This document shows positions 7,335-31,840 of a stretch of DNA of 64,000 nt, in pieces. Each line of letters starts with the position of its first letter. Positions within the stretch are counted from its first letter, which is position 1. The position numbers and the translations under genes are program-made. The stretch lies in assembly GCF_054482595.1 (NCBI RefSeq), contig NZ_CM137008.1; one strand, given 5' to 3'. The notes below the pieces were generated by a model that worked only from the letters and a program-made list of their open reading frames with translations, was not told where the DNA came from and did not search any database.

Positions 7335-10259
7335 GTGAATATGGCAGTAAAGATTTCAGGTGTACTGAAAGACGGCACAGGAAAACCGGTTCAGAACTGC
7401 ACAATCCAGCTGAAAGCAAAACGTAACAGCACCACGGTGGTGGTGAACACGCTGGCCTCAGAAAATCCGGATGAAGCCGGGCGTTACAGCATGGACGTTG
7501 AGTACGGTCAGTACAGCGTTATTCTGTTGGTGGAAGGATTCCCGCCGTCACATGCCGGGACCATCACCGTGTATGAAGATTCCCAACCCGGTACGCTGAA
7601 TGATTTTCTCGGTGCCATGACGGAGGATGATGCCCGTCCGGAGGCTCTGCGCCGTTTTGAACTGATGGTGGAAGAGGTGACGCGTAACGCGTCCGCGGTG
7701 GCACAGAACACGGCAGCCGCGAAGAAGTCAGCCAGTGATGCCGGCACATCTGCCCGTGAGGCGGCAACCCATGCGACTGATGCTGCAGGCTCAGCGCGTG
7801 CAGCCAGCACGTCAGCCGGACAGGCCGCGACTTCGGCTCAGGAGGCGTCTTCCAGCGCAGGAACGGCATCAACAAAGGCCACTGAAGCATCAAAAAGTGC
7901 TGCCGCTGCAGAGTCCTCAAAAAGCGCGGCGGCCACCAGTGCCGGTGCGGCGAAAACGTCAGAAACGAATGCTGCAGCGTCACAAAAATCAGCAGCCACT
8001 TCTGCATCCACTGCGACGACGAAAGCGTCAGAAGCCGCCACTTCAGCCAGAGATGCGGCGGCCTCCAAAGAGGCGGCAAAATCATCAGAAACGAACGCCT
8101 CCACAAGCGCCAGCAGTGCAGCCTCCTCGGCAACGGCGGCAGGAAATTCCGTGAAGGCGGCAAAAACGTCCGAGACGAATGCCAGGTCTTCTGAAACGGC
8201 AGCGGAACAGAGCGCCTCAGCTGCGGCAGACTCTGAGACAGCAGCTGCATCATCGGCCCGTGAGGCGTCCATTAAGGCAGAGGAGGCAGCAGTCAGTGCC
8301 ACCGCCGCCGGAAAATCGGCAGAAAGCGCCGCATCATCCGCTTCAACAGCCACAACGAAGGCTGGCGAAGCCACTGAACAGGCCAGCGCAGCAGCGAGGT
8401 CTGCTTCCGCAGCGAAGACATCCGAAACGAACGCGAAAGCGTCGGAAACCAGCGCAGAATCCTCAAAAACGGCTGCCGCATCGTCCGCCAGTTCGGCGGC
8501 GTCATCGGCATCATCTGCGTCTGCTTCAAAAGATGAGGCGACCAGACAGGCGTCAGCAGCGAGGGGCAGCGCCACGACGGCATCCACGAAGGCGACAGAG
8601 GCTGCTGGCAGTGCGGCAGCGGCAGCACAGAGCAAAAGTACGGCGGAATCCGCGGCAACGCGCGCCGAGACAGCAGCAAAACGGGCAGAGGATATTGCAT
8701 CCGCCGTGGCGCTTGAGGATGCGAGCACGACGAAAAAGGGGATAGTACAGCTCAGCAGTGCGACCAACAGCACTTCCGAGTCACAGGCGGCAACGCCAAA
8801 AGCCGTTAAGGCCGCGTATGACCTGGCTAACGGGAAATACACCGCACAGGATGCAACGACAGCACAGAAAGGGATAGTTCAGCTCAGCAGTGCGACTAAC
8901 AGCACTTCCGAGTCACAGGCGGCAACGCCAAAAGCCGTTAAGGCCGCGTATGACCTGGCTAACGGGAAATACACCGCACAGGACGCTACGACAGCACAAA
9001 AAGGAATTGTCCAGCTCAGTAGTGCAACCAACAGCACATCTGAAACGCTTGCTGCGACACCGAAAGCAGTGAAAGCAGCTAATGACAATGCGAATGGTCG
9101 GGTACCTTCTGCCCGTAAGGTGAATGGTAAGGCGCTTTCAGCGGATATAACACTGACGCCGAAAGATATTGGTACGCTTAACTCAACAACAATGTCATTC
9201 AGCGGTGGTGCTGGTTGGTTCAAATTAGCAACGGTAACCATGCCACAGGCGAGTTCTGTTGTTTCAATTACGTTGATTGGTGGCGCTGGATTTAACGTGG
9301 GGTCACCTCAACAGGCAGGTATATCTGAACTTGTTTTACGTGCAGGTAATGGTAATCCGAAGGGGATTACTGGTGCTTTATGGCAGCGCACATCGACAGG
9401 GTTTACAAATTTTGCCTGGGTCAATACATCTGGTGATACTTACGATATTTACGTTGCAATCGGAAATTATGCGACTGGTGTAAATATTCAATGGGATTAT
9501 ACCAGTAATGCCAGCGTGACGATTCATACGTCACCAGCATATTCTGCTAATAAGCCGGAAGGGTTAACGGACGGTACAGTTTATTCACTCTATACGCCAT
9601 CAGAGCAGTTTTATCCGCCTGGCGCACCAATCCCGTGGCCATCAGATACCGTTCCGTCTGGCTATGCCCTGATGCAGGGGCAGACTTTTGACAAATCTGC
9701 CTACCCGAAACTTGCAGCCGCTTATCCGTCAGGCGTGATCCCTGATATGCGTGGCTGGACGATTAAGGGCAAGCCCGCCAGTGGTCGTGCCGTATTATCT
9801 CAGGAACAGGACGGCATTAAATCGCATACCCACAGTGCCAGTGCATCCAGTACGGATTTGGGGACGAAAACCACATCGTCGTTTGATTACGGCACTAAAT
9901 CCACGAATAACACCGGAGCGCACACCCATAGTGTCAGTGGTACGGCTGCTTCTGCAGGGGCACATACACACACGGTTGCCTGTTACCCATCTGGCAATAC
10001 CGAGCAGGGCGATAAAGCCCTCAAAGGTGCGTCTCGTGCAGGCTCGAGTACTGGCACATCGTCAGCCGGAGCGCATACCCACCCGGTGTCAGGTACTGCT
10101 GCAAGTGCAGGTGCACACGCGCATACTGTCGGTATTGGTGCTCATACGCACTCCGTTGCGATTGGCTCACACGGACACACCATCACCGTTAACGCTGCTG
10201 GTAACGCGGAAAACACCGTCAAAAACATCGCATTTAACTATATTGTGAGGCTTGCATAA
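7335..10259 (+). CDS. stf: Side tail fibre protein (Stf-like) with Ala/Ser/Thr-rich shaft, 44-aa tandem repeats and His-rich C-terminal repeats
   Basis: 974-aa ORF; N-terminus resembles lambda Stf; long low-complexity A/S/T region; three 44-aa repeats; C-terminal GAHTHxV repeats. Confidence 0.85.
8739..9134 (+). repeat. Three tandem copies of a 132-bp (44-codon) unit inside stf; copies 1 and 2 nearly identical, copy 3 diverged
   Basis: Units begin at 8741, 8873 and 9005 (gatagtacagctcagcagtg... / gatagttcagctcagcagtg... / gaattgtccagctcagtagtg...); each encodes [25 protein letters not shown]. Confidence 0.85.
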
Positions 10260-19475: not shown

Positions 19476-20663
19476 TTAGAACTGGTAGACTAAGCCCACA
19501 GCCACGATATCATCGGTAGCGATGCCGTTTTCTTTGTAGAAGTCGTCGTCGTTGTCCAGCAGGTTGATTTTGTAATCAACATAAGTGGACATGTTTTTGT
19601 TGAAGTAGTAGGTCATACCAATATCAACATATTTAACCAGATCTTTGTTGGTGTAATGATGATTACCCTGGCTGTCGAAGTTATCACTATTTACACCGCC
19701 TAAATCCTTACCTTTAGATTGCAGGTAAGCGATGGACGGGCGCAGGCCAAAGTCGAACTGATACTGAGCAACAACTTCAAAGTTTTGGGTTTTGTTAGCG
19801 ATGGCATCAGCATCACCGTAACCAGTCATGTTACGGGTTTCAGCATACATAGCTGCTAAGTAAACGTTATTAGCGTCATATTTAGCACCAACGGTCCATG
19901 CTTCTGCTGTTTCACCGCCAGCAGTTGCATCGAAGCGATCTCCATAACGAATGTTATGCAAACCTTTGTGAACCTGATTGTCAGTACGGTCAGAATTAGA
20001 ATATGCAGCACCCAGACTTAAACCGAAGTCGAAGTCATAGGAAGTGGACATACCGAAGCCGTCGCCGTTCTCTTTAGCTAACTTACGGCCATTACCGTTA
20101 CCAGAACCTTCCTGACCGAATAATCCATCATCTTCATTATTACCCTGATATTGCAAAGCAAAGTTCAAGCCATCGACCTGACCAAAGAAGCCATTGTTAC
20201 GGTAGGTTGCAACACCATTAGCACGACCGTTCATGAAGTTGTCAGCGCCAGCATAGGTATCGCCACCAAATTCTGGCAGCATATCGGTCCATGCTTCTAC
20301 GTCATATACGACACCGTAGTTACGACCATAGTCGAAAGTACCATTCTGACCAAAGCCTAAACCTGCAAATGCCAGACGCGTTGCGGTATTACCCTTGTCG
20401 CTTTCAGGACCGTTTGCGCCAATGTTAAATTCCCACTGACCATAACCAGTGAATTGATCAGCGATCTGAGTTTCACCTTTGAAACCGATACGGGCATATG
20501 ACATGTCGCCATCGCTGCCAGAATCATCAGAGAAGTAGTGCAGACCCACTACTTTTCCGTACAAATCCAGTTTATTACCATCTTTATTATAGACTTCAGC
20601 CGCATTTGCTGCGCCAGCAACTAATAATGCCGGGACCAGCATTGCCAGAACTTTTCTTTTCAT
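19476..20663 (-). CDS. yedS: General-diffusion porin (OmpC/OmpF family), intact
   Basis: Signal peptide [37 protein letters not shown] start and terminal F typical of porins; position next to hchA matches yedS; the ORF-track start at 20693 is an upstream extension. Confidence 0.8.
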
Positions 20664-21292
20664 TATGTATTCCCTTGTGATTATAATCTTCATGAATATA
20701 TCAATAAGTGCCGTTATCCAAAAAAAAGCACATTTGGATACTATTCTATGAAGTTCATTTTATTTTAAAGATTACATGTAACAAATGTATTTAAAAGATT
20801 TCAAAATGTTTCTAATCTATTTAATATAATTTAGAATTATGAATTCTAAATATAAATATTCATGAAAATTATAAATGTATATCAATATGTTATGAGTTGA
20901 GCGGAAGCATAGGGGGTATCAATGATTGTTGCGCCAAACGGCTGGTGTGATCACGCGCACATTAATGAAGGCATAAAAAAAAGCCGGCATCATGCCGGCC
21001 CAAAAAATATAAACAAGACGATAAAAGGCTAATAACGGAGGCATCATGACACAGAAAAATAAAAAGGTATAATTGTATTCAGTGCTAATATATTGATTAA
21101 ATGAATTAATAAAGCCGATCTCAAAGATAAATAAAATCGCTCAAAACGATTTTTCCTGTATTCACTGCCGTTGCGCAAAAATTATCTATTTGTTCAAAAA
21201 ATGAGTGAGTCTTGACTGGCTCATCCAATGTGGAAAAATGTGACTTTTATCACATAATAGTACTAAGTCTGAATTTTCCGGGTTATCTCAAA

Positions 21293-21616
21293 ATGGAATA
21301 CGGTTCGACAAAGATGGAAGAGAGACTCTCTCGCAGCCCTGGTGGCAAACTGGCTTTGTGGGCTTTCTATACATGGTGTGGCTATTTCGTCTGGGCAATG
21401 GCGCGTTACATCTGGGCAATGGCGCGTTACATCTGGGTGATGAGCCGGATCCCCGATGCCCCCGTGTCGGGATTTGAAAGCGATTTAGGCTCTACCGCGG
21501 GAAAGTGGTTAGGGGCACTGGTCGGATTTTTATTTATGGCTCTGGTCGGGGCATTGTTAGGCAGCATTGCCTGGTACACCCGACCTCGTCCCGCACGTAG
21601 CAGACGCTATGAATAA
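21293..21616 (+). CDS. yedR: Small inner-membrane protein YedR; carries a 21-bp in-frame tandem duplication
   Basis: ORF containing MEYGSTKMEERLSRSPGGKLALWAFYTWCGYFVWAMARYIWAMARYIWVMSRIP...; start codon uncertain (ORF track begins at 21212). Confidence 0.7.
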   Translation: MEYGSTKMEERLSRSPGGKLALWAFYTWCGYFVWAMARYIWAMARYIWVMSRIPDAPVSGFESDLGSTAGKWLGALVGFLFMALVGALLGSIAWYTRPRPARSRRYE

Positions 21617-21655: not shown

Positions 21656-22351
21656 ATGGACTTACAACACTGGCAGGCACAGTTCGAAAACTGGTTGAAA
21701 AACCATCATCAGCACCAGGACGCGGCCCATGACGTGTGTCATTTTCGCCGCGTCTGGGCTACGGCACAGAAGCTGGCGGCAGATGACGATGTCGATATGC
21801 TGGTGATTTTAACCGCCTGTTATTTTCACGATATTGTGAGCCTGGCGAAAAATCATCCGCAAAGGCAGCGTTCTTCAATCCTGGCGGCAGAAGAGACGCG
21901 TCGCCTGCTCCGTGAAGAGTTCGAGCAATTTCCGGCGGAGAAAATCGAGGCCGTTTGTCATGCCATTGCCGCTCACAGTTTCAGCGCGCAAATCGCCCCC
22001 TTAACAACGGAAGCTAAAATTGTCCAGGATGCGGATCGGCTGGAAGCCCTGGGGGCGATTGGCCTGGCGCGCGTGTTTGCCGTTTCAGGGGCATTGGGCG
22101 TGGCGCTGTTTGATGGTGAAGATCCGTTCGCACAGCATCGCCCGCTTGATGATAAACGCTACGCGCTGGATCATTTCCAGACTAAGTTGCTGAAGCTACC
22201 GCAAACCATGCAAACCGCAAGAGGCAAGCAGCTGGCGCAGCACAACGCGCATTTTTTAGTCGAGTTTATGGCGAAGCTCAGTGCCGAACTGGCGGGGGAG
22301 AATGAAGGTGTCGATCACAAGGTGATAGATGCGTTTTCACCCGCGGGATAA
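21656..22351 (+). CDS. yedJ: HD-domain phosphohydrolase
   Basis: 231-aa ORF with an HD motif (YFHDIV). Confidence 0.85.
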
Positions 22352-22417: not shown

Positions 22418-23836
22418 ATGCAGGAAAATATATCAGTAACCGATTCATACAGCACCGGGAATGCCGCACAGGCAATGCTGGAGAAACTGCTGCAAATTTA
22501 TGATGTTAAAACGCTGGTGGCGCAGCTTAATGGTGTGGGTGAGAATCACTGGAGCGCGGCAATTTTAAAACGTGCGCTGGCGAATGACTCGGCATGGCAC
22601 CGTTTAAGTGAGAAAGAGTTCGCCCATCTGCAAACGTTGTTACCCAAACCACCGGCACATCATCCGCATTATGCGTTTCGCTTTATCGATCTATTTGCCG
22701 GAATTGGCGGCATCCGTCGCGGTTTTGAATCGATTGGCGGACAATGCGTGTTTACCAGCGAATGGAACAAACATGCGGTACGCACTTATAAAGCCAACCA
22801 TTATTGCGATCCGGCGACGCATCATTTTAATGAAGATATCCGCGACATCACCCTCAGCCATAAAGAAGGCGTGAGTGATGAGGCGGCGGCGGAACATATT
22901 CGTAAACACATTCCTGAACACGATGTTTTACTGGCCGGTTTCCCTTGTCAGCCATTTTCGCTGGCTGGCGTATCGAAAAAGAACTCGCTCGGGCGGGCGC
23001 ACGGTTTTGCCTGCGATACCCAGGGCACGCTGTTTTTTGATGTGGTACGCATTATCGACGCGCGTCGTCCGGCGATGTTTGTGCTCGAAAACGTCAAAAA
23101 CCTGAAAAGTCACGACCAGGGTAAAACGTTCCGCATCATCATGCAGACGCTGGACGAACTGGGCTATGACGTGGCTGATGCAGAAGATAATGGGCCAGAC
23201 GATCCGAAAATCATCGACGGTAAACATTTTCTGCCGCAGCACCGTGAACGCATCGTGCTGGTGGGTTTTCGTCGCGATCTGAATCTGAAAGCCGATTTTA
23301 CCCTGCGTGAGATCAGCGAATGTTTCCCTTCACAGCGAGTGACACTGGCGCAGTTACTGGACCCGATGGTCGAGGCGAAATATATCCTGACGCCGGTGCT
23401 GTGGAAGTACCTCTATCGTTATGCGAAAAAACATCAGGCGCGCGGTAACGGCTTCGGTTATGGAATGGTTTATCCGAACAATCCGCAAAGCGTCACGCGT
23501 ACGCTGTCTGCGCGTTATTACAAAGATGGCGCGGAAATTTTAATCGATCGCGGCTGGGATATGGCCAAAGGTGAGAAAGACTTTGACGATCCGCAGAATC
23601 AGCAACATCGTCCACGTCGGTTAACGCCTCGTGAATGCGCGCGCTTAATGGGTTTTGAAGCGCCGGGAGAAGCGAAATTCCGCATTCCGGTTTCGGACAC
23701 TCAGGCCTATCGCCAGTTCGGTAACTCGGTGGTCGTGCCGGTCTTTGCCGCGGTGGCAAAACTGCTTGAGCCAAAAATCAAACAGGCGGTGGCGTTGCGT
23801 CAGCAAGAGGCACAACATGGCCGACGTTCACGATAA
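22418..23836 (+). CDS. dcm: DNA-cytosine C5 methyltransferase Dcm
   Basis: 472-aa ORF with FAGIGG and PCQ motifs. Confidence 0.95.
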
Positions 23837-24287
23837 GGCCACTCGCAGCAAAAATATGCGCGCGATTGCCACGCGTGATACGGCGATTGAGAAGCGCCTC
23901 GCCAGTCTGTTAACCGGGCAGGGCCTGGCGTTTCGCGTTCAGGACGCCAGTCTGCCCGGTCGCCCGGATTTTGTCGTTGATGAATATCGTTGCGTGATAT
24001 TTACCCACGGCTGCTTCTGGCACCATCATCACTGCTATCTGTTTAAAGTGCCTGCGACTCGAACCGAGTTCTGGCTGGAGAAGATAGGTAAAAATGTTGA
24101 GCGCGATCGCCGCGATATCAGTCGCTTGCAGGAGCTTGGCTGGCGCGTACTGATTGTCTGGGAGTGTGCGTTACGCGGGCGCGAAAAATTGACGGATGCG
24201 GCACTTACCGAGCGTCTGGAAGAGTGGATCTGCGGCGAAGGTGCCAGCGCGCAGATCGACACGCAGGGGATTCATTTACTCGCTTGA
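23817..24287 (+). CDS. vsr: Very-short-patch repair endonuclease Vsr
   Basis: Internal ATG ([16 protein letters not shown]...) gives 156 aa and overlaps the dcm 3' end; the ORF-track start at 23655 lies inside dcm. Confidence 0.95.
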
Positions 24288-25196
24288 TGCGTCCTGAATA
24301 ACTGGCGCAATAACGGGTTTTGCCGGGAAAAGATATTTTCCTAACGTGACCAGTACCACCGCGAAGACAATCACGCCGAGCGCCAGCCATTCAATCTTAG
24401 ACAGCGTCTCTCCGCCCACTCCCGTACCCAGCAAGACCGCGACCACCGGGTTAACGTAGGCGTAGCTGGTGGCGAGAGCCGGACTGACGTTGCGGATTAA
24501 ATACATATAAGCGTTAATGGCGATAATCGAACCAAACAGCGCCAGATAGCCGACCGCAAGGAAGCCTGAAAGGGAAGGGATCGCCGTCAGTTTTTCACCT
24601 GCAATCATCGACGCGATAATTAACACCACGCCTGCCGCCAGCATCTCAATCGCACCCGCCATCATTCCTACAGGTAAGGTAATGCGCGAGCCATAAACCG
24701 AGCCAAACGCCCAGCTAATCGAGCCGATTAAAATAAGAATCGCGCCCCACGGATTGCCGCTTAAATTTCCACCGCTATTGAGCATGATGATTCCGGCAAG
24801 CCCAATGGCGATACCCACCCATTCCAGTTTGCGCGTTTTAATGCCAAACAGGCGGCTGAAGCACAGGGTAAAGAGGGGCACGGTTGCAACCACAACGGCG
24901 GCGATGCCGGAAGGAACATTTTGATGCTCGGCAACCGTCACCATGCCATTACCGACAGCCAGCAATAACAGGCCAATCAGCGCGGCATTGAGCAGCGGAC
25001 GTAGCGGGGGGAGTTTGTGTCCGCGCAGTAGCAAAAATGCCAGCAATAAAATACCGGCTGCCAGGAATCGAACGCCCGCCATCATTAACGGAGGCCAGCT
25101 TTCCACGCCAATCCGAATGACAAAATAGGTTGAGCCCCAAATGATATACAACGCAAACAGCGCGCCAAAAAGCGGTAACAACTGGCGGAAACGCAT
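24276..25196 (-). CDS. yedA: EamA/DMT-family inner-membrane transporter
   Basis: 306-aa polytopic membrane ORF. Confidence 0.9.
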   Translation of the reverse strand: MRFRQLLPLFGALFALYIIWGSTYFVIRIGVESWPPLMMAGVRFLAAGILLLAFLLLRGHKLPPLRPLLNAALIGLLLLAVGNGMVTVAEHQNVPSGIAAVVVATVPLFTLCFSRLFGIKTRKLEWVGIAIGLAGIIMLNSGGNLSGNPWGAILILIGSISWAFGSVYGSRITLPVGMMAGAIEMLAAGVVLIIASMIAGEKLTAIPSLSGFLAVGYLALFGSIIAINAYMYLIRNVSPALATSYAYVNPVVAVLLGTGVGGETLSKIEWLALGVIVFAVVLVTLGKYLFPAKPVIAPVIQDASSE

Positions 25197-26364: not shown

Positions 26365-26547
26365 ATGAGCTTTATGGTTAGTGAGGAAGTTACGGTTAAA
26401 GAGGGCGGCCCGCGGATGATTGTCACCGGATACTCCAGCGGTATGGTTGAGTGTCGTTGGTATGACGGTTACGGGGTCAAGCGGGAAGCTTTTCATGAAA
26501 CCGAGCTTGTTCCGGGGGAGGGGAGTCGTCCTGCGGAAGAAGTTTGA
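26365..26547 (+). CDS. yodC: Small protein YodC (DUF2158)
   Basis: 60-aa ORF with ggagg RBS; sequence recognised as YodC. Confidence 0.85.
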   Translation: MSFMVSEEVTVKEGGPRMIVTGYSSGMVECRWYDGYGVKREAFHETELVPGEGSRPAEEV

Positions 26548-26717
26548 AAGAGTATCATTAACATCAGGCCGGATCACATCCGGCCTGATGTGCTAATGCC
26601 TGCAATGAATGATAGTCGCGTCTTATCATGCCACCATTATAAAATTATCGCTGTTTTGCGGTACGCTATCGCCAGGTTATGCCAGAATCATAAAAAAGCA
26701 GGTTGGGAGTCGTCAGG

Positions 26718-29241
<2,524 letters not shown>

Positions 29242-29387
29242 TTACCAGGATGTTTCTCAAAACAGCACAAATAATCAAAGATGATTTTTTCGGGAGCGAT
29301 CCCGTTGACGTCAGAGCCACCAAGGGGTGACGCGCGTCACATTTCTATTCATAAGTAGCGTTAATCATTCATATCACGAATATTTTC

Positions 29388-29416
29388 TTGTCAGCGAAAA
29401 AAATTGCGGATAAGGT
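29388..29416 (+). promoter_or_regulatory. Candidate sigma-70 promoter of dsrA
   Basis: ttgtca (-35) and taaggt (-10) with 17-bp spacing, ending 5 nt before the DsrA 5' end. Confidence 0.45.
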
Positions 29417-29420
29417 GATG

Positions 29421-29508
29421 AACACATCAGATTTCCTGGTGTAACGAATTTTTTAAGTGCTTCTTGCTTAAGCAAGTTTAATCCCGACCCCCTCAGGGTC
29501 GGGATTTT
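29421..29508 (+). ncRNA. dsrA: DsrA small regulatory RNA (Hfq-dependent; activates rpoS translation, antagonises hns)
   Basis: aacacatcagatttcctggtgtaacgaattttttaagtgcttcttgcttaagcaagttt.atcccgaccccctcagggtcgggattt matches DsrA as I recall it (one possible mismatch); ends in a GC hairpin plus U-tract. Confidence 0.9.
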
Positions 29509-29520
29509 TTTATTGTGCAT

Positions 29521-29748
29521 TCAACGATTCACTTCAGAGACGCTGAAGTCATGAATATCCAGTTCGAAGGCATCCGCCAATTCACGCCATGTATGATATT
29601 CACGTCCATCGACACTAACGTGTTCAGGATCGTGCTGGCTGCGATGAACTTCGCTTTCGCTAATTTCATTGATCGCCGCCAGCAGGGCATCGACATCGAC
29701 ACTGACCTCACGTTTTGCGGTATCGCTGTACTCTTTTGCGGTTTTCAT
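29521..29748 (-). CDS. yodD: Stress-induced small protein YodD
   Basis: Internal ATG (MKTAKEYSDTAKREVSVDVDALLAAINEISE...) gives 75 aa. Confidence 0.85.
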   Translation of the reverse strand: MKTAKEYSDTAKREVSVDVDALLAAINEISESEVHRSQHDPEHVSVDGREYHTWRELADAFELDIHDFSVSEVNR

Positions 29749-29819
29749 CATCTTTCCTCGCAACCGTTACTCTGTTGTTGCCGCCAGTCGTTAAGTCCGC
29801 TGGCATCTCTTAAGTATAG

Positions 29820-30098
<279 letters not shown>

Positions 30099-30141
30099 TC
30101 TAATTCAGCCTGACTGGTGGGAAACCACCAGTCAGAATGTG

Positions 30142-30765
30142 TTAGCGCATGTTGACAAAAATACCATTAGTCACATTATCCGTCAGTCGGACGACATGGT
30201 AGATAACCTGTTTATTATGCGTTTTGATCTTACGTTTAATATTACCTTTATGCGATGAAACGGTCTTGGCTTTGATATTCATTTGGTCGGAGATTTGAAT
30301 GGTTCCCTGACCTGCCATCCACATTCGCAACATACTCGATTCGGTTCGGCTCAATGATAACGTCGGCATATTTAAAAACGAGGTTATCGTTGTCTCTTTT
30401 TTCAGAATATCGCCAAGGATATCGTCGAGAGATTCCGGTTTAATCGATTTAGAACTGATCAATAAATTTTTTCTGACCAATAGATATTCATCAAAATGAA
30501 CATTGGCAATTGCCATAAAAACGATAAATAACGTATTGGGATGTTGATTAATGATGAGCTTGATACGCTGACTGTTAGAAGCATCGTGGATGAAACAGTC
30601 CTCATTAATAAACACCACTGAAGGGCGCTGTGAATCACAAGCTATGGCAAGGTCATCAACGGTTTCAATGTCGTTGATTTCTCTTTTTTTAACCCCTCTG
30701 CTCAACAGATACCCGGTTAAACCTAGTCGGGTGTAACTACATAAATCCATAATAATCGTTGACAT
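30142..30765 (-). CDS. rcsA: RcsA, LuxR-type auxiliary regulator of capsule synthesis
   Basis: 207-aa ORF with C-terminal LuxR-type HTH; AT-rich upstream region. Confidence 0.95.
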
Positions 30766-31054
30766 GGCATACCCTCACTCAATGCGTAACGATAATTCCC
30801 CTTACCTGAATATTTCATCATGACTAAACGGAACAACATGGGTCACCTAATGCGCCACTCTCGCGATTTTTCAGGCGGACTTACTATCCCGTAAAGTGTT
30901 GTATAATTTGCCTGGAATTGTCTTAAAGTAAAGTAAATGTTGCGATATGTGAGTGAGGTTAAAACAAATATTTCGCCACAGGAGTATCCTGGAAGATGTT
31001 CGTGGGTATTATTTTTCAGATAATCCTTAGGATAACAAGATAAACATTAGGGAA

Positions 31055-31840
31055 TCATATTACAGGTAATTCGCTGATAATATCTGCCAGCAAATTAAAA
31101 ATTTCACTGAATAAATGTTCGCAAAAAGGAGCAATTAACGGCATTAATGCCGCCATTAATGAGATACCGACAGTCAGAGTTAATGGAAATCCAATAACAA
31201 AAATGGATAATTGCGGGGCCATACGATTCAGTAAACCTAATGCCAGATTCAGTGTCAGCAGCAGAGTAATGAGCGGTAACGCCAGCATCAGTCCATTGAG
31301 GAAAATCAAACTCCCTGCTTTGGTGAGTGCCAGAAACGCATTGCTATTTAGCGGCTCGCCACCAATAGGCAGGGTGTGAAAGGTATCCACCAGCAGTGAA
31401 ATCAGCCATAAATGACCGTTAAATGTCAGGAACAGCAGTAACGCCAGCATATCCATGATGCGCGCTAAAACGGGCATATTGAGATGGCTGCCCGGATCGA
31501 CAAACGTCGCAAATGACAGTCCCATTTGCAGACCGATAATTTCGCCAGCGGTTCGCACAGCGGCAAAAGCAAACTGCATGGTAAAACCAAGCGCAATGCC
31601 GATCAGGATCTGCTGCACGGCCAGCCACAGAGCAAAGAACGAAAAAACAGGAACATCGTTGGCAGGTAAGGATGGGGCAATGGCGAACGTGATCATCATT
31701 GCCAGACCCAGTTTGACCCGTTTCGGCACGCTACGTTCGCTCAGAATTGGCGCGGTAGAAATGAGCGCCAGCACGCGCAGTAACGGCCAGAAGTACAGGC
31801 TCAACCAAGAAAGCCATTGATCGCTTGTCACCTGCAACAT
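31055..31840 (-). CDS. fliR: Flagellar export apparatus protein FliR
   Basis: 261-aa polytopic membrane ORF; last gene of the fliL-R operon. Confidence 0.95.

Follow-up and report, generated by a model that had tools for sequence, protein, structure and literature searches.

The drpB gene of the 64-kb window (the whole stretch of DNA that was analyzed) contains a perfect in-frame 21-bp tandem duplication, which doubles a heptad in the first transmembrane helix of the encoded cell division protein. It is very probable that this is a rare, near-neutral allele of drpB which has been produced recurrently by slippage. The duplicated form is a rare natural allele that is low in frequency and lineage-restricted each time it occurs, and the window belongs to the carrier lineage met most often, in which the ST448 isolate EC-JS426 is also found. 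It is already present in RefSeq; no published description of it was found, and a search of the literature gave no paper linking yedR, the former name of drpB, with an in-frame duplication.

The repeat and the drpB locus

The repeat unit, as read from the sequence, is ctgggcaatggcgcgttacat at 21391..21411, followed directly by a second copy at 21412..21432. Tandem Repeats Finder reports the array at 21390..21437 (period 21, 2.3 copies, 100% matches, 0 indels, score 96), which is the same repeat with the phase offset by one base. In this phase, the site reads ...TTTCG TCTGGGCAATGGCGCGTTACA TCTGGGCAATGGCGCGTTACA TCTGGGTGATG... in the window. The first copy (21390..21410, + strand) encodes W34-A-M-A-R38-Y-I40 in the numbering from the M22 start and corresponds to the 21 columns missing from all single-copy alleles. 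The second (21411..21431, + strand) has the same sequence, and the newer copy of the pair is indistinguishable. A perfect 21+21 tandem is expected by chance about 1.5e-8 times in 64 kb; two tandem arrays with a score of at least 50 occur in the whole window, the drpB repeat being one. The array is in frame within an ORF of the + strand (21212..21616), the product of which reads ...FVWAMARYIWAMARYIWVMS..., with WAMARYI encoded twice. Both the repeat finder and the ORF thus bear out the first-pass annotation, which had described a perfect in-frame duplication doubling this heptad.

Immediately 3' of the repeat, TCTGGGtGATG agrees with the start of the unit at 9/11 positions, and it had been taken for a diverged third unit. 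It is not a remnant of an earlier copy: TCTGGG and the W41 codon are the ancestral 3' flank and are present in every single-copy allele. Descent from a longer, older array was likewise rejected; only 12/21 positions match, W41 is invariant among 31 orthologues from other genera and the residues after it are unrelated to the unit. The TCTGGG at 21432..21437 (+ strand) is the ancestral 3' direct repeat, the partner of TCTGGG at 21390..21395, and the two form a 6-bp, period-21, in-frame direct repeat.

The gene that contains the repeat is drpB, whose product, a small protein with two helices in the inner membrane, is a non-essential part of the division machinery. In the three complete E. coli genomes with the same sequence, it is labelled drpB, 'cell division protein DrpB', in RefSeq. 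The NCBIfam equivalog NF038392 (div_DrpB_YedR; cutoff 50) matches the duplicated allele with 147.2 bits and the single-copy allele with 151.6 bits, the match to the duplicated protein being broken into two stretches by the insertion. A scan of a local copy of Pfam-A gave no match, that copy being older than the DrpB family PF28000; PF28000:DrpB is given by the precomputed annotation of the protein collection searched below. It was reported that translation of DrpB begins mainly at the ATG of annotated codon 22, at 21293 in the window (Yahashiri et al. 2020, PMC7648144). From this experimentally supported start (MEYGSTK...), the CDS occupies 21293..21616 on the + strand, as also indicated by the ORF and by NF038392, and encodes 107 aa, compared with 100 aa in single-copy alleles. 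RefSeq/PGAP places the start at M29 (MEERL...; 21314..21616, + strand), which makes the duplicated protein 100 aa long (WP_244462095.1) and the single-copy protein 93 aa (WP_001297704.1). An upstream segment of drpB is assigned to 21212..21258 (+ strand) by consensus match only (PMC7648144).

The locus has the order porin-rseX-drpB-yedJ-dcm-vsr, and the position between rseX or the porin gene and yedJ-dcm-vsr is conserved. Upstream of drpB lie hprS, hchA and a porin gene called ompC by PGAP, which sits at the place of the K-12 yedS pseudogene; downstream lie yedJ, dcm, vsr and yedA. The next gene downstream, yedJ (HD phosphohydrolase; 21656..22351, + strand; identified as an ORF and by the RefSeq annotation), shows that the locus is syntenic with drpB regions elsewhere in E. 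coli. The other neighbor, the small RNA gene rseX (20976..21065, - strand; Rfam RF01401, 96.7 bits), is upstream and clear of the repeat, and no other RNA gene or signal was found overlapping the repeat on either strand. Antisense ORFs of 43-50 aa were regarded as mechanical and set aside. A SNP at 21002, which is A or C among otherwise near-identical carriers, falls in a terminator-like stem of rseX.

Copy number and independent origins

The 405-bp drpB region was compared by megablast with 5,426 complete E. coli genomes. Full-length drpB was matched in 4903, and two copies of the unit (405-bp span, 100% identity) are present in 3/4903, or about 0.06%. All other full-length matches span 384 bp, a few being shorter by at least one base, and have one copy. 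The two-copy genomes are EC-JS426 (human, Germany), EC-7215 and CE-O153H30 (wild bird, Hong Kong); EC-JS426, an OXA-48 isolate, is typed ST448, and CE-O153H30 is typed ST12280. In a collection of 15 billion proteins, the two-copy protein was found with four different starts, accounting for 105, 6, 98 and 172 contig observations. Hence the length polymorphism of the protein that had been suggested does exist, and the possibility that every allele carries the same two copies gave way to the contrary outcome on comparison across genomes, most alleles being single-copy. There were 516 complete genomes of the 5,426 without a megablast match to the 405-bp region. In one strain without a match (MLI104K2), the interval between the porin gene and drpB is largely gone, and hchA and yedJ are frameshifted.

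An origin of the duplication in assembly or sequencing can be given practically no credence. The same sequence is present in three complete genomes with separate accessions, two of them with different stated sources, and one is a nanopore R10.4.1 assembly (PMC11963381). It also occurs in many drafts and in Logan assemblies made directly from public read sets, and the 42-bp repeat is much shorter than a sequencing read. The number of independent assemblies thus rules out the artefact that the first-pass annotation had named as a possible refutation.

The repeat is a two-state length polymorphism, with one or two copies. Synthetic 0-copy and 3-copy DNA queries found no such allele in the 5,426 complete genomes, and apparent 100% matches to them were discarded as two-piece alignments of 1-copy or 2-copy genomes. 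Proteins with no copy or three copies, derived from the commonest protein background with four different starts, were absent as exact sequences from the 15-billion-protein collection. A multi-state repeat array is therefore not borne out in the complete genomes or in the protein backgrounds tested in that collection. A perfect 21-bp duplicate could in principle contract or expand by slippage, as would be required if the repeat were a programmed contingency locus switching the length of DrpB at high frequency, and it shares with phase-variable loci (simple-sequence repeats, surface-protein genes) an intragenic position and a copy number that varies between strains. However, the unit is 21 bp long and exists in just two states, no 3-copy allele having been found; the change is in frame inside the CDS, so that there is no on/off switch; and the state is stable within a lineage, the sampled members of the carrier lineage being all two-copy while the single-copy twins differ at a linked SNP. 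Such a switch is accordingly considered extremely improbable.

A further 23 carrier loci were obtained by exact-protein look-up and compared with the window and with single-copy genomes. The duplication is present in at least 6-8 local drpB haplotypes. Haplotype A is found in the window, in the three complete genomes and at nine other loci, and it is the same over 4.25 kb as five single-copy genomes (L004-L008), from which it is set apart by a linked SNP in the porin gene: position 19951 is A in every haplotype-A carrier for which there are data, whereas the single-copy twins have G. This SNP also alters the accession of the porin, which is WP_047656155.1 or WP_000824418.1. Haplotype B comprises three loci (L011, L018 and L023). 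Its member L011 matches the single-copy strain A38 without a single SNP over 5 kb, the 21-bp gap aside, and differs from the window by 364 SNPs, among them 21209 (181 bp upstream of the repeat) and 21463 (31 bp downstream). For L022 and L027, the best complete-genome matches show 99.4% identity over 3701 bp with a span of 3680 bp, so that these carriers are identical to their twins except for the 21-bp gap. The four loci L027-L030 have about 95% identity to the window and carry the Arg codon CGA, not CGT, in both copies. The O10 reference strain Bi8337-41 has a separate haplotype together with W28R.

Recombination is frequent in this region of E. coli, and the window itself has foreign patches at 23311-24666 and beyond 26500; it could thus be asked whether the duplication arose once and then spread by homologous recombination. 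This was rejected as extremely improbable, given that SNPs peculiar to individual backgrounds flank the repeat at distances of 47 bp (upstream) and 31 bp (downstream), that four duplicated backgrounds have single-copy twins with zero SNPs across 3.7-5 kb of flank, and that in one background both copies carry a private synonymous SNP (CGT to CGA). The presence of CGA in both copies of L027-L030 means that the duplication was not imported there from another lineage. The many haplotypes, the single-copy twins and the CGA pair therefore argue for recurrent origin rather than for one event spread by recombination. Judged from these alignments, the number of independent origins can be put rigorously at four or more, and it is probably eight. 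The recurrence of the identical duplication in several haplotype backgrounds also upholds the earlier description of the site as prone to slippage.

Between 11212 and 23300, the window differs by 3 SNPs from the other haplotype-A carriers, which indicates clonal descent upstream. Its dcm 3' end, vsr and yedA (23311-24666) show 33 clustered SNPs relative to other carriers of the haplotype and to the single-copy twins, and a second densely divergent stretch runs from about 26.5 kb on (26500-31616). Both stretches look like strain-specific recombination patches.

Probable slippage between short direct repeats

Single-copy alleles read ...TTTCG TCTGGGCAATGGCGCGTTACA TCTGGGTGATG..., and TCTGGG was found at both ends of the 21-bp unit in all that were examined. 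This pair, 21 bp apart, is among the longest in-frame short direct repeats of drpB. Such repeats are a classical substrate for slipped-strand mispairing. The two copies stand head to tail without mismatches or filler bases, and the junction is the same in all carriers, as mispairing between the two repeats would give. The duplication can be attributed to slippage between these direct repeats, a route that we infer from the junction sequences. In the ancestral single-copy allele, with its two 6-bp TCTGGG repeats exactly 21 bp apart, the nascent strand would mispair between the repeats during replication (slipped-strand mispairing), and the intervening 21 bp would be copied twice to give a perfect in-frame tandem duplication. 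DrpB thereby gains a second W-A-M-A-R-Y-I heptad in helix 1, including a second copy of the conserved Arg38, and the helix would become about two turns longer, with the residues that flank the insertion kept in roughly the same rotational register. The duplication arose independently in several E. coli lineages, and the resulting allele, probably near-neutral or mildly impairing, would be tolerated since drpB is dispensable, with no programmed switch likely to be involved. Mispairing of this kind would presumably be RecA-independent.

The site is an ordinary 6-bp microhomology, although the duplication has recurred at least six times. No hairpin that would favor slippage between the direct repeats was predicted (minimum free energy -5.2 kcal/mol; DNA fold z = +0.74). 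The reciprocal 21-bp deletion, which is expected from the same TCTGGG repeats, was not found in the complete genomes or, on the commonest protein background, among the proteins. Its absence may point to selection acting on helix 1 and not to strict neutrality.

Slipped-strand (microhomology-mediated) events that duplicate or delete DNA between short direct repeats are well known in bacteria, and misalignment mutagenesis is reportedly the subject of reviews by Lovett. The drpB duplication resembles these events in having a 6-bp repeat at the spacing of the unit, a perfect head-to-tail product and recurrent breakpoints, and in that other repeats of drpB both duplicate and delete; it differs in that the reciprocal deletion was not observed at the TCTGGG repeat, and it shows no feature that speaks against the mechanism. 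In helix 2, a 24-bp duplication (P0036) is located at CTGGTCGG repeats spaced 24 bp, and the same repeats and spacing underlie a 24-bp deletion (P0043, P0046), an 8-aa loss seen in 40 contigs including a complete chromosome. A 36-bp deletion (P0048, 12-aa), also in helix 2, lies at GGGGCA repeats spaced 36 bp. The window equivalents of these four alleles are at about 21497-21560. A different event was found on one contig (GCA_031081505.1), where 42 bp are duplicated in tandem and in frame, giving WCGYFVWAMARYIW twice, in a stretch that overlaps the site of the 21-bp repeat in helix 1; exact direct repeats of at least 5 bp were looked for at this spacing and none was found. In strain G3 (NZ_CP195958.1), a 13-bp deletion between GATG repeats frameshifts drpB, which is annotated as a pseudogene in RefSeq; it is equivalent to 21439-21451 of the window, just downstream of the repeat site.

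The 24-bp and 36-bp changes fall on the short direct repeats which, along with TCTGGG, are the longest in frame within drpB. The indels at microhomologies, the frameshift allele and the absence of the gene from some genomes together mean that drpB is weakly constrained and that its length variants track microhomologies. The gene is hence a worked example of how the in-frame length variants of a small gene map to its longest short direct repeats, and such an example helps to tell mutational noise from designed switches among odd repeats in coding regions.

Predicted consequences for the DrpB protein

DrpB has two transmembrane helices joined by a loop of about 20 aa, with the N and C termini both cytoplasmic; it is septal and non-essential, suppresses an ftsEX deletion when present in multicopy, and is synthetically defective with dedD (PMC7648144). 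Overproduced DrpB was found to switch on the Rcs phosphorelay via the periplasmic domain of RcsC, and the R38F exchange weakens both Rcs induction and ftsEX suppression (Petchiappan et al., PMC11709261). Septal localization, ftsEX suppression and Rcs activation are known for the single-copy K-12 allele (PMC7648144, PMC11709261). On comparing the window with K-12, the same locus (rseX-drpB-yedJ-dcm-vsr), the same protein sequence outside the duplication and two predicted helices are found, but the window allele has seven extra residues in helix 1 and is 107 aa rather than 100 aa long from the M22 start. At this length, it slightly exceeds the published size range of about 85-103 aa.

The duplicated heptad W34-A35-M36-A37-R38-Y39-I40, R38 included, sits in transmembrane helix 1, as the first-pass annotation had supposed in assigning it to a membrane segment; the published topology (PMC7648144) and the AlphaFold2 helix at 16-52 agree on this. 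In the AlphaFold2 models, the helices cover 16-45 and 56-88 in the single-copy protein, and 16-52 and 61-95 in the duplicated one. These runs used an alignment of 32-33 sequences and are of moderate confidence (helix pLDDT about 80-85, mean pLDDT 67, pTM 0.39), and they predict a helix 1 that is seven residues longer and a helix 2 that is unchanged in character. The hydrophobic stretch from K19 to S/R grows from 24 to 31 residues, with two arginines inside. Since an insertion of seven residues corresponds to a helix turn of about 700 degrees, the helix faces on either side remain nearly aligned. No insertion in helix 1 occurs in the 31 orthologues from other genera. A functional effect of the duplication is plausible because R38 matters to both activities and because helix 1 is without insertions in these orthologues. 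We infer that a near-neutral or mildly impairing effect is the most likely one; a null effect is possible and an adaptive one is unlikely.

If DrpB were inactivated, for example because a 31-residue helix with two arginines is inserted wrongly or is unstable, the duplication would join the loss-of-function alleles of a gene that the cell can do without. All 31 orthologues have a helix 1 of the same length, and natural alleles of the loss type exist: the 13-bp frameshift, the deletions of 8 aa and 12 aa from helix 2 and the lack of the gene in some genomes. Yet the frame is kept, the allele has stayed intact across a widespread lineage without secondary disruption, the heptad insertion nearly keeps the helical register and the AlphaFold2 model is still a continuous two-helix hairpin. 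This outcome has a real chance of being correct, although it must be regarded as doubtful.

It was also considered whether the duplication is adaptive and positively selected, through divisome recruitment or Rcs envelope-stress signalling for example, and recurs in successful clones for that reason. At least 6-8 backgrounds show the identical event, and one carrier lineage holds most of the few hundred contig observations (Germany, Hong Kong and elsewhere, with the OXA-48 ST448 isolate). The heptad includes R38, a residue at which exchange for F weakens Rcs induction and ftsEX suppression (PMC11709261), and the reciprocal 21-bp deletion is absent from the alleles searched. Against this, the allele is very rare (3/4903 complete genomes), and every background besides that of the window's lineage consists of one to a few assemblies. 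Microhomology mutation accounts for the recurrence, other microhomologies of drpB also giving natural indels, and drpB null mutants have almost no phenotype (PMC7648144). Positive selection is thus unlikely. Its more specific form, in which the heptad duplication is a recurrently selected gain-of-function or altered-function DrpB that engages the divisome or RcsC differently via the doubled Arg38 and the longer helix, is improbable. Were it true, carriers including the multidrug-resistant ST448 isolate and its relatives would have an envelope-stress or division advantage, and the missing reciprocal deletion would reflect selection on helix 1.

A parallel is found in ftsI of E. coli, where recurrent in-frame 12-bp duplications (the PBP3 YRIN/YRIK insertions) occur in multidrug-resistant clones and have a demonstrated selective agent, the beta-lactams, and a phenotype. 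Both cases concern short in-frame tandem duplications in a division-related envelope protein, found in several lineages including a clinical carbapenemase-producing isolate. The drpB duplication, however, is far lower in frequency and affects a non-essential gene.

On the preferred reading of a recurrent, near-neutral slippage product, the duplication is an ordinary type of mutation in a non-essential gene, and views on cell division or on repeat-mediated mutation are unchanged by it. It is of mild interest for its clean recurrent origin and its placement over a functionally relevant residue. As a ready-made natural variant with a two-turn extension of helix 1 and R38 doubled, it could also serve structure-function work on DrpB, whose roles in division and Rcs activation are poorly understood, and it is a simple marker of the carrier clone to which ST448 isolates belong.

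Elsewhere in the window, a 132-bp tandem repeat (2.3 copies, 92% matches) was observed at 8734-9037, within a + strand ORF at 7335-10259 (974 aa). This ORF matches phage tail-fibre families (phrog_295, E = 1.8e-245), which places a prophage about 11 kb upstream of drpB.
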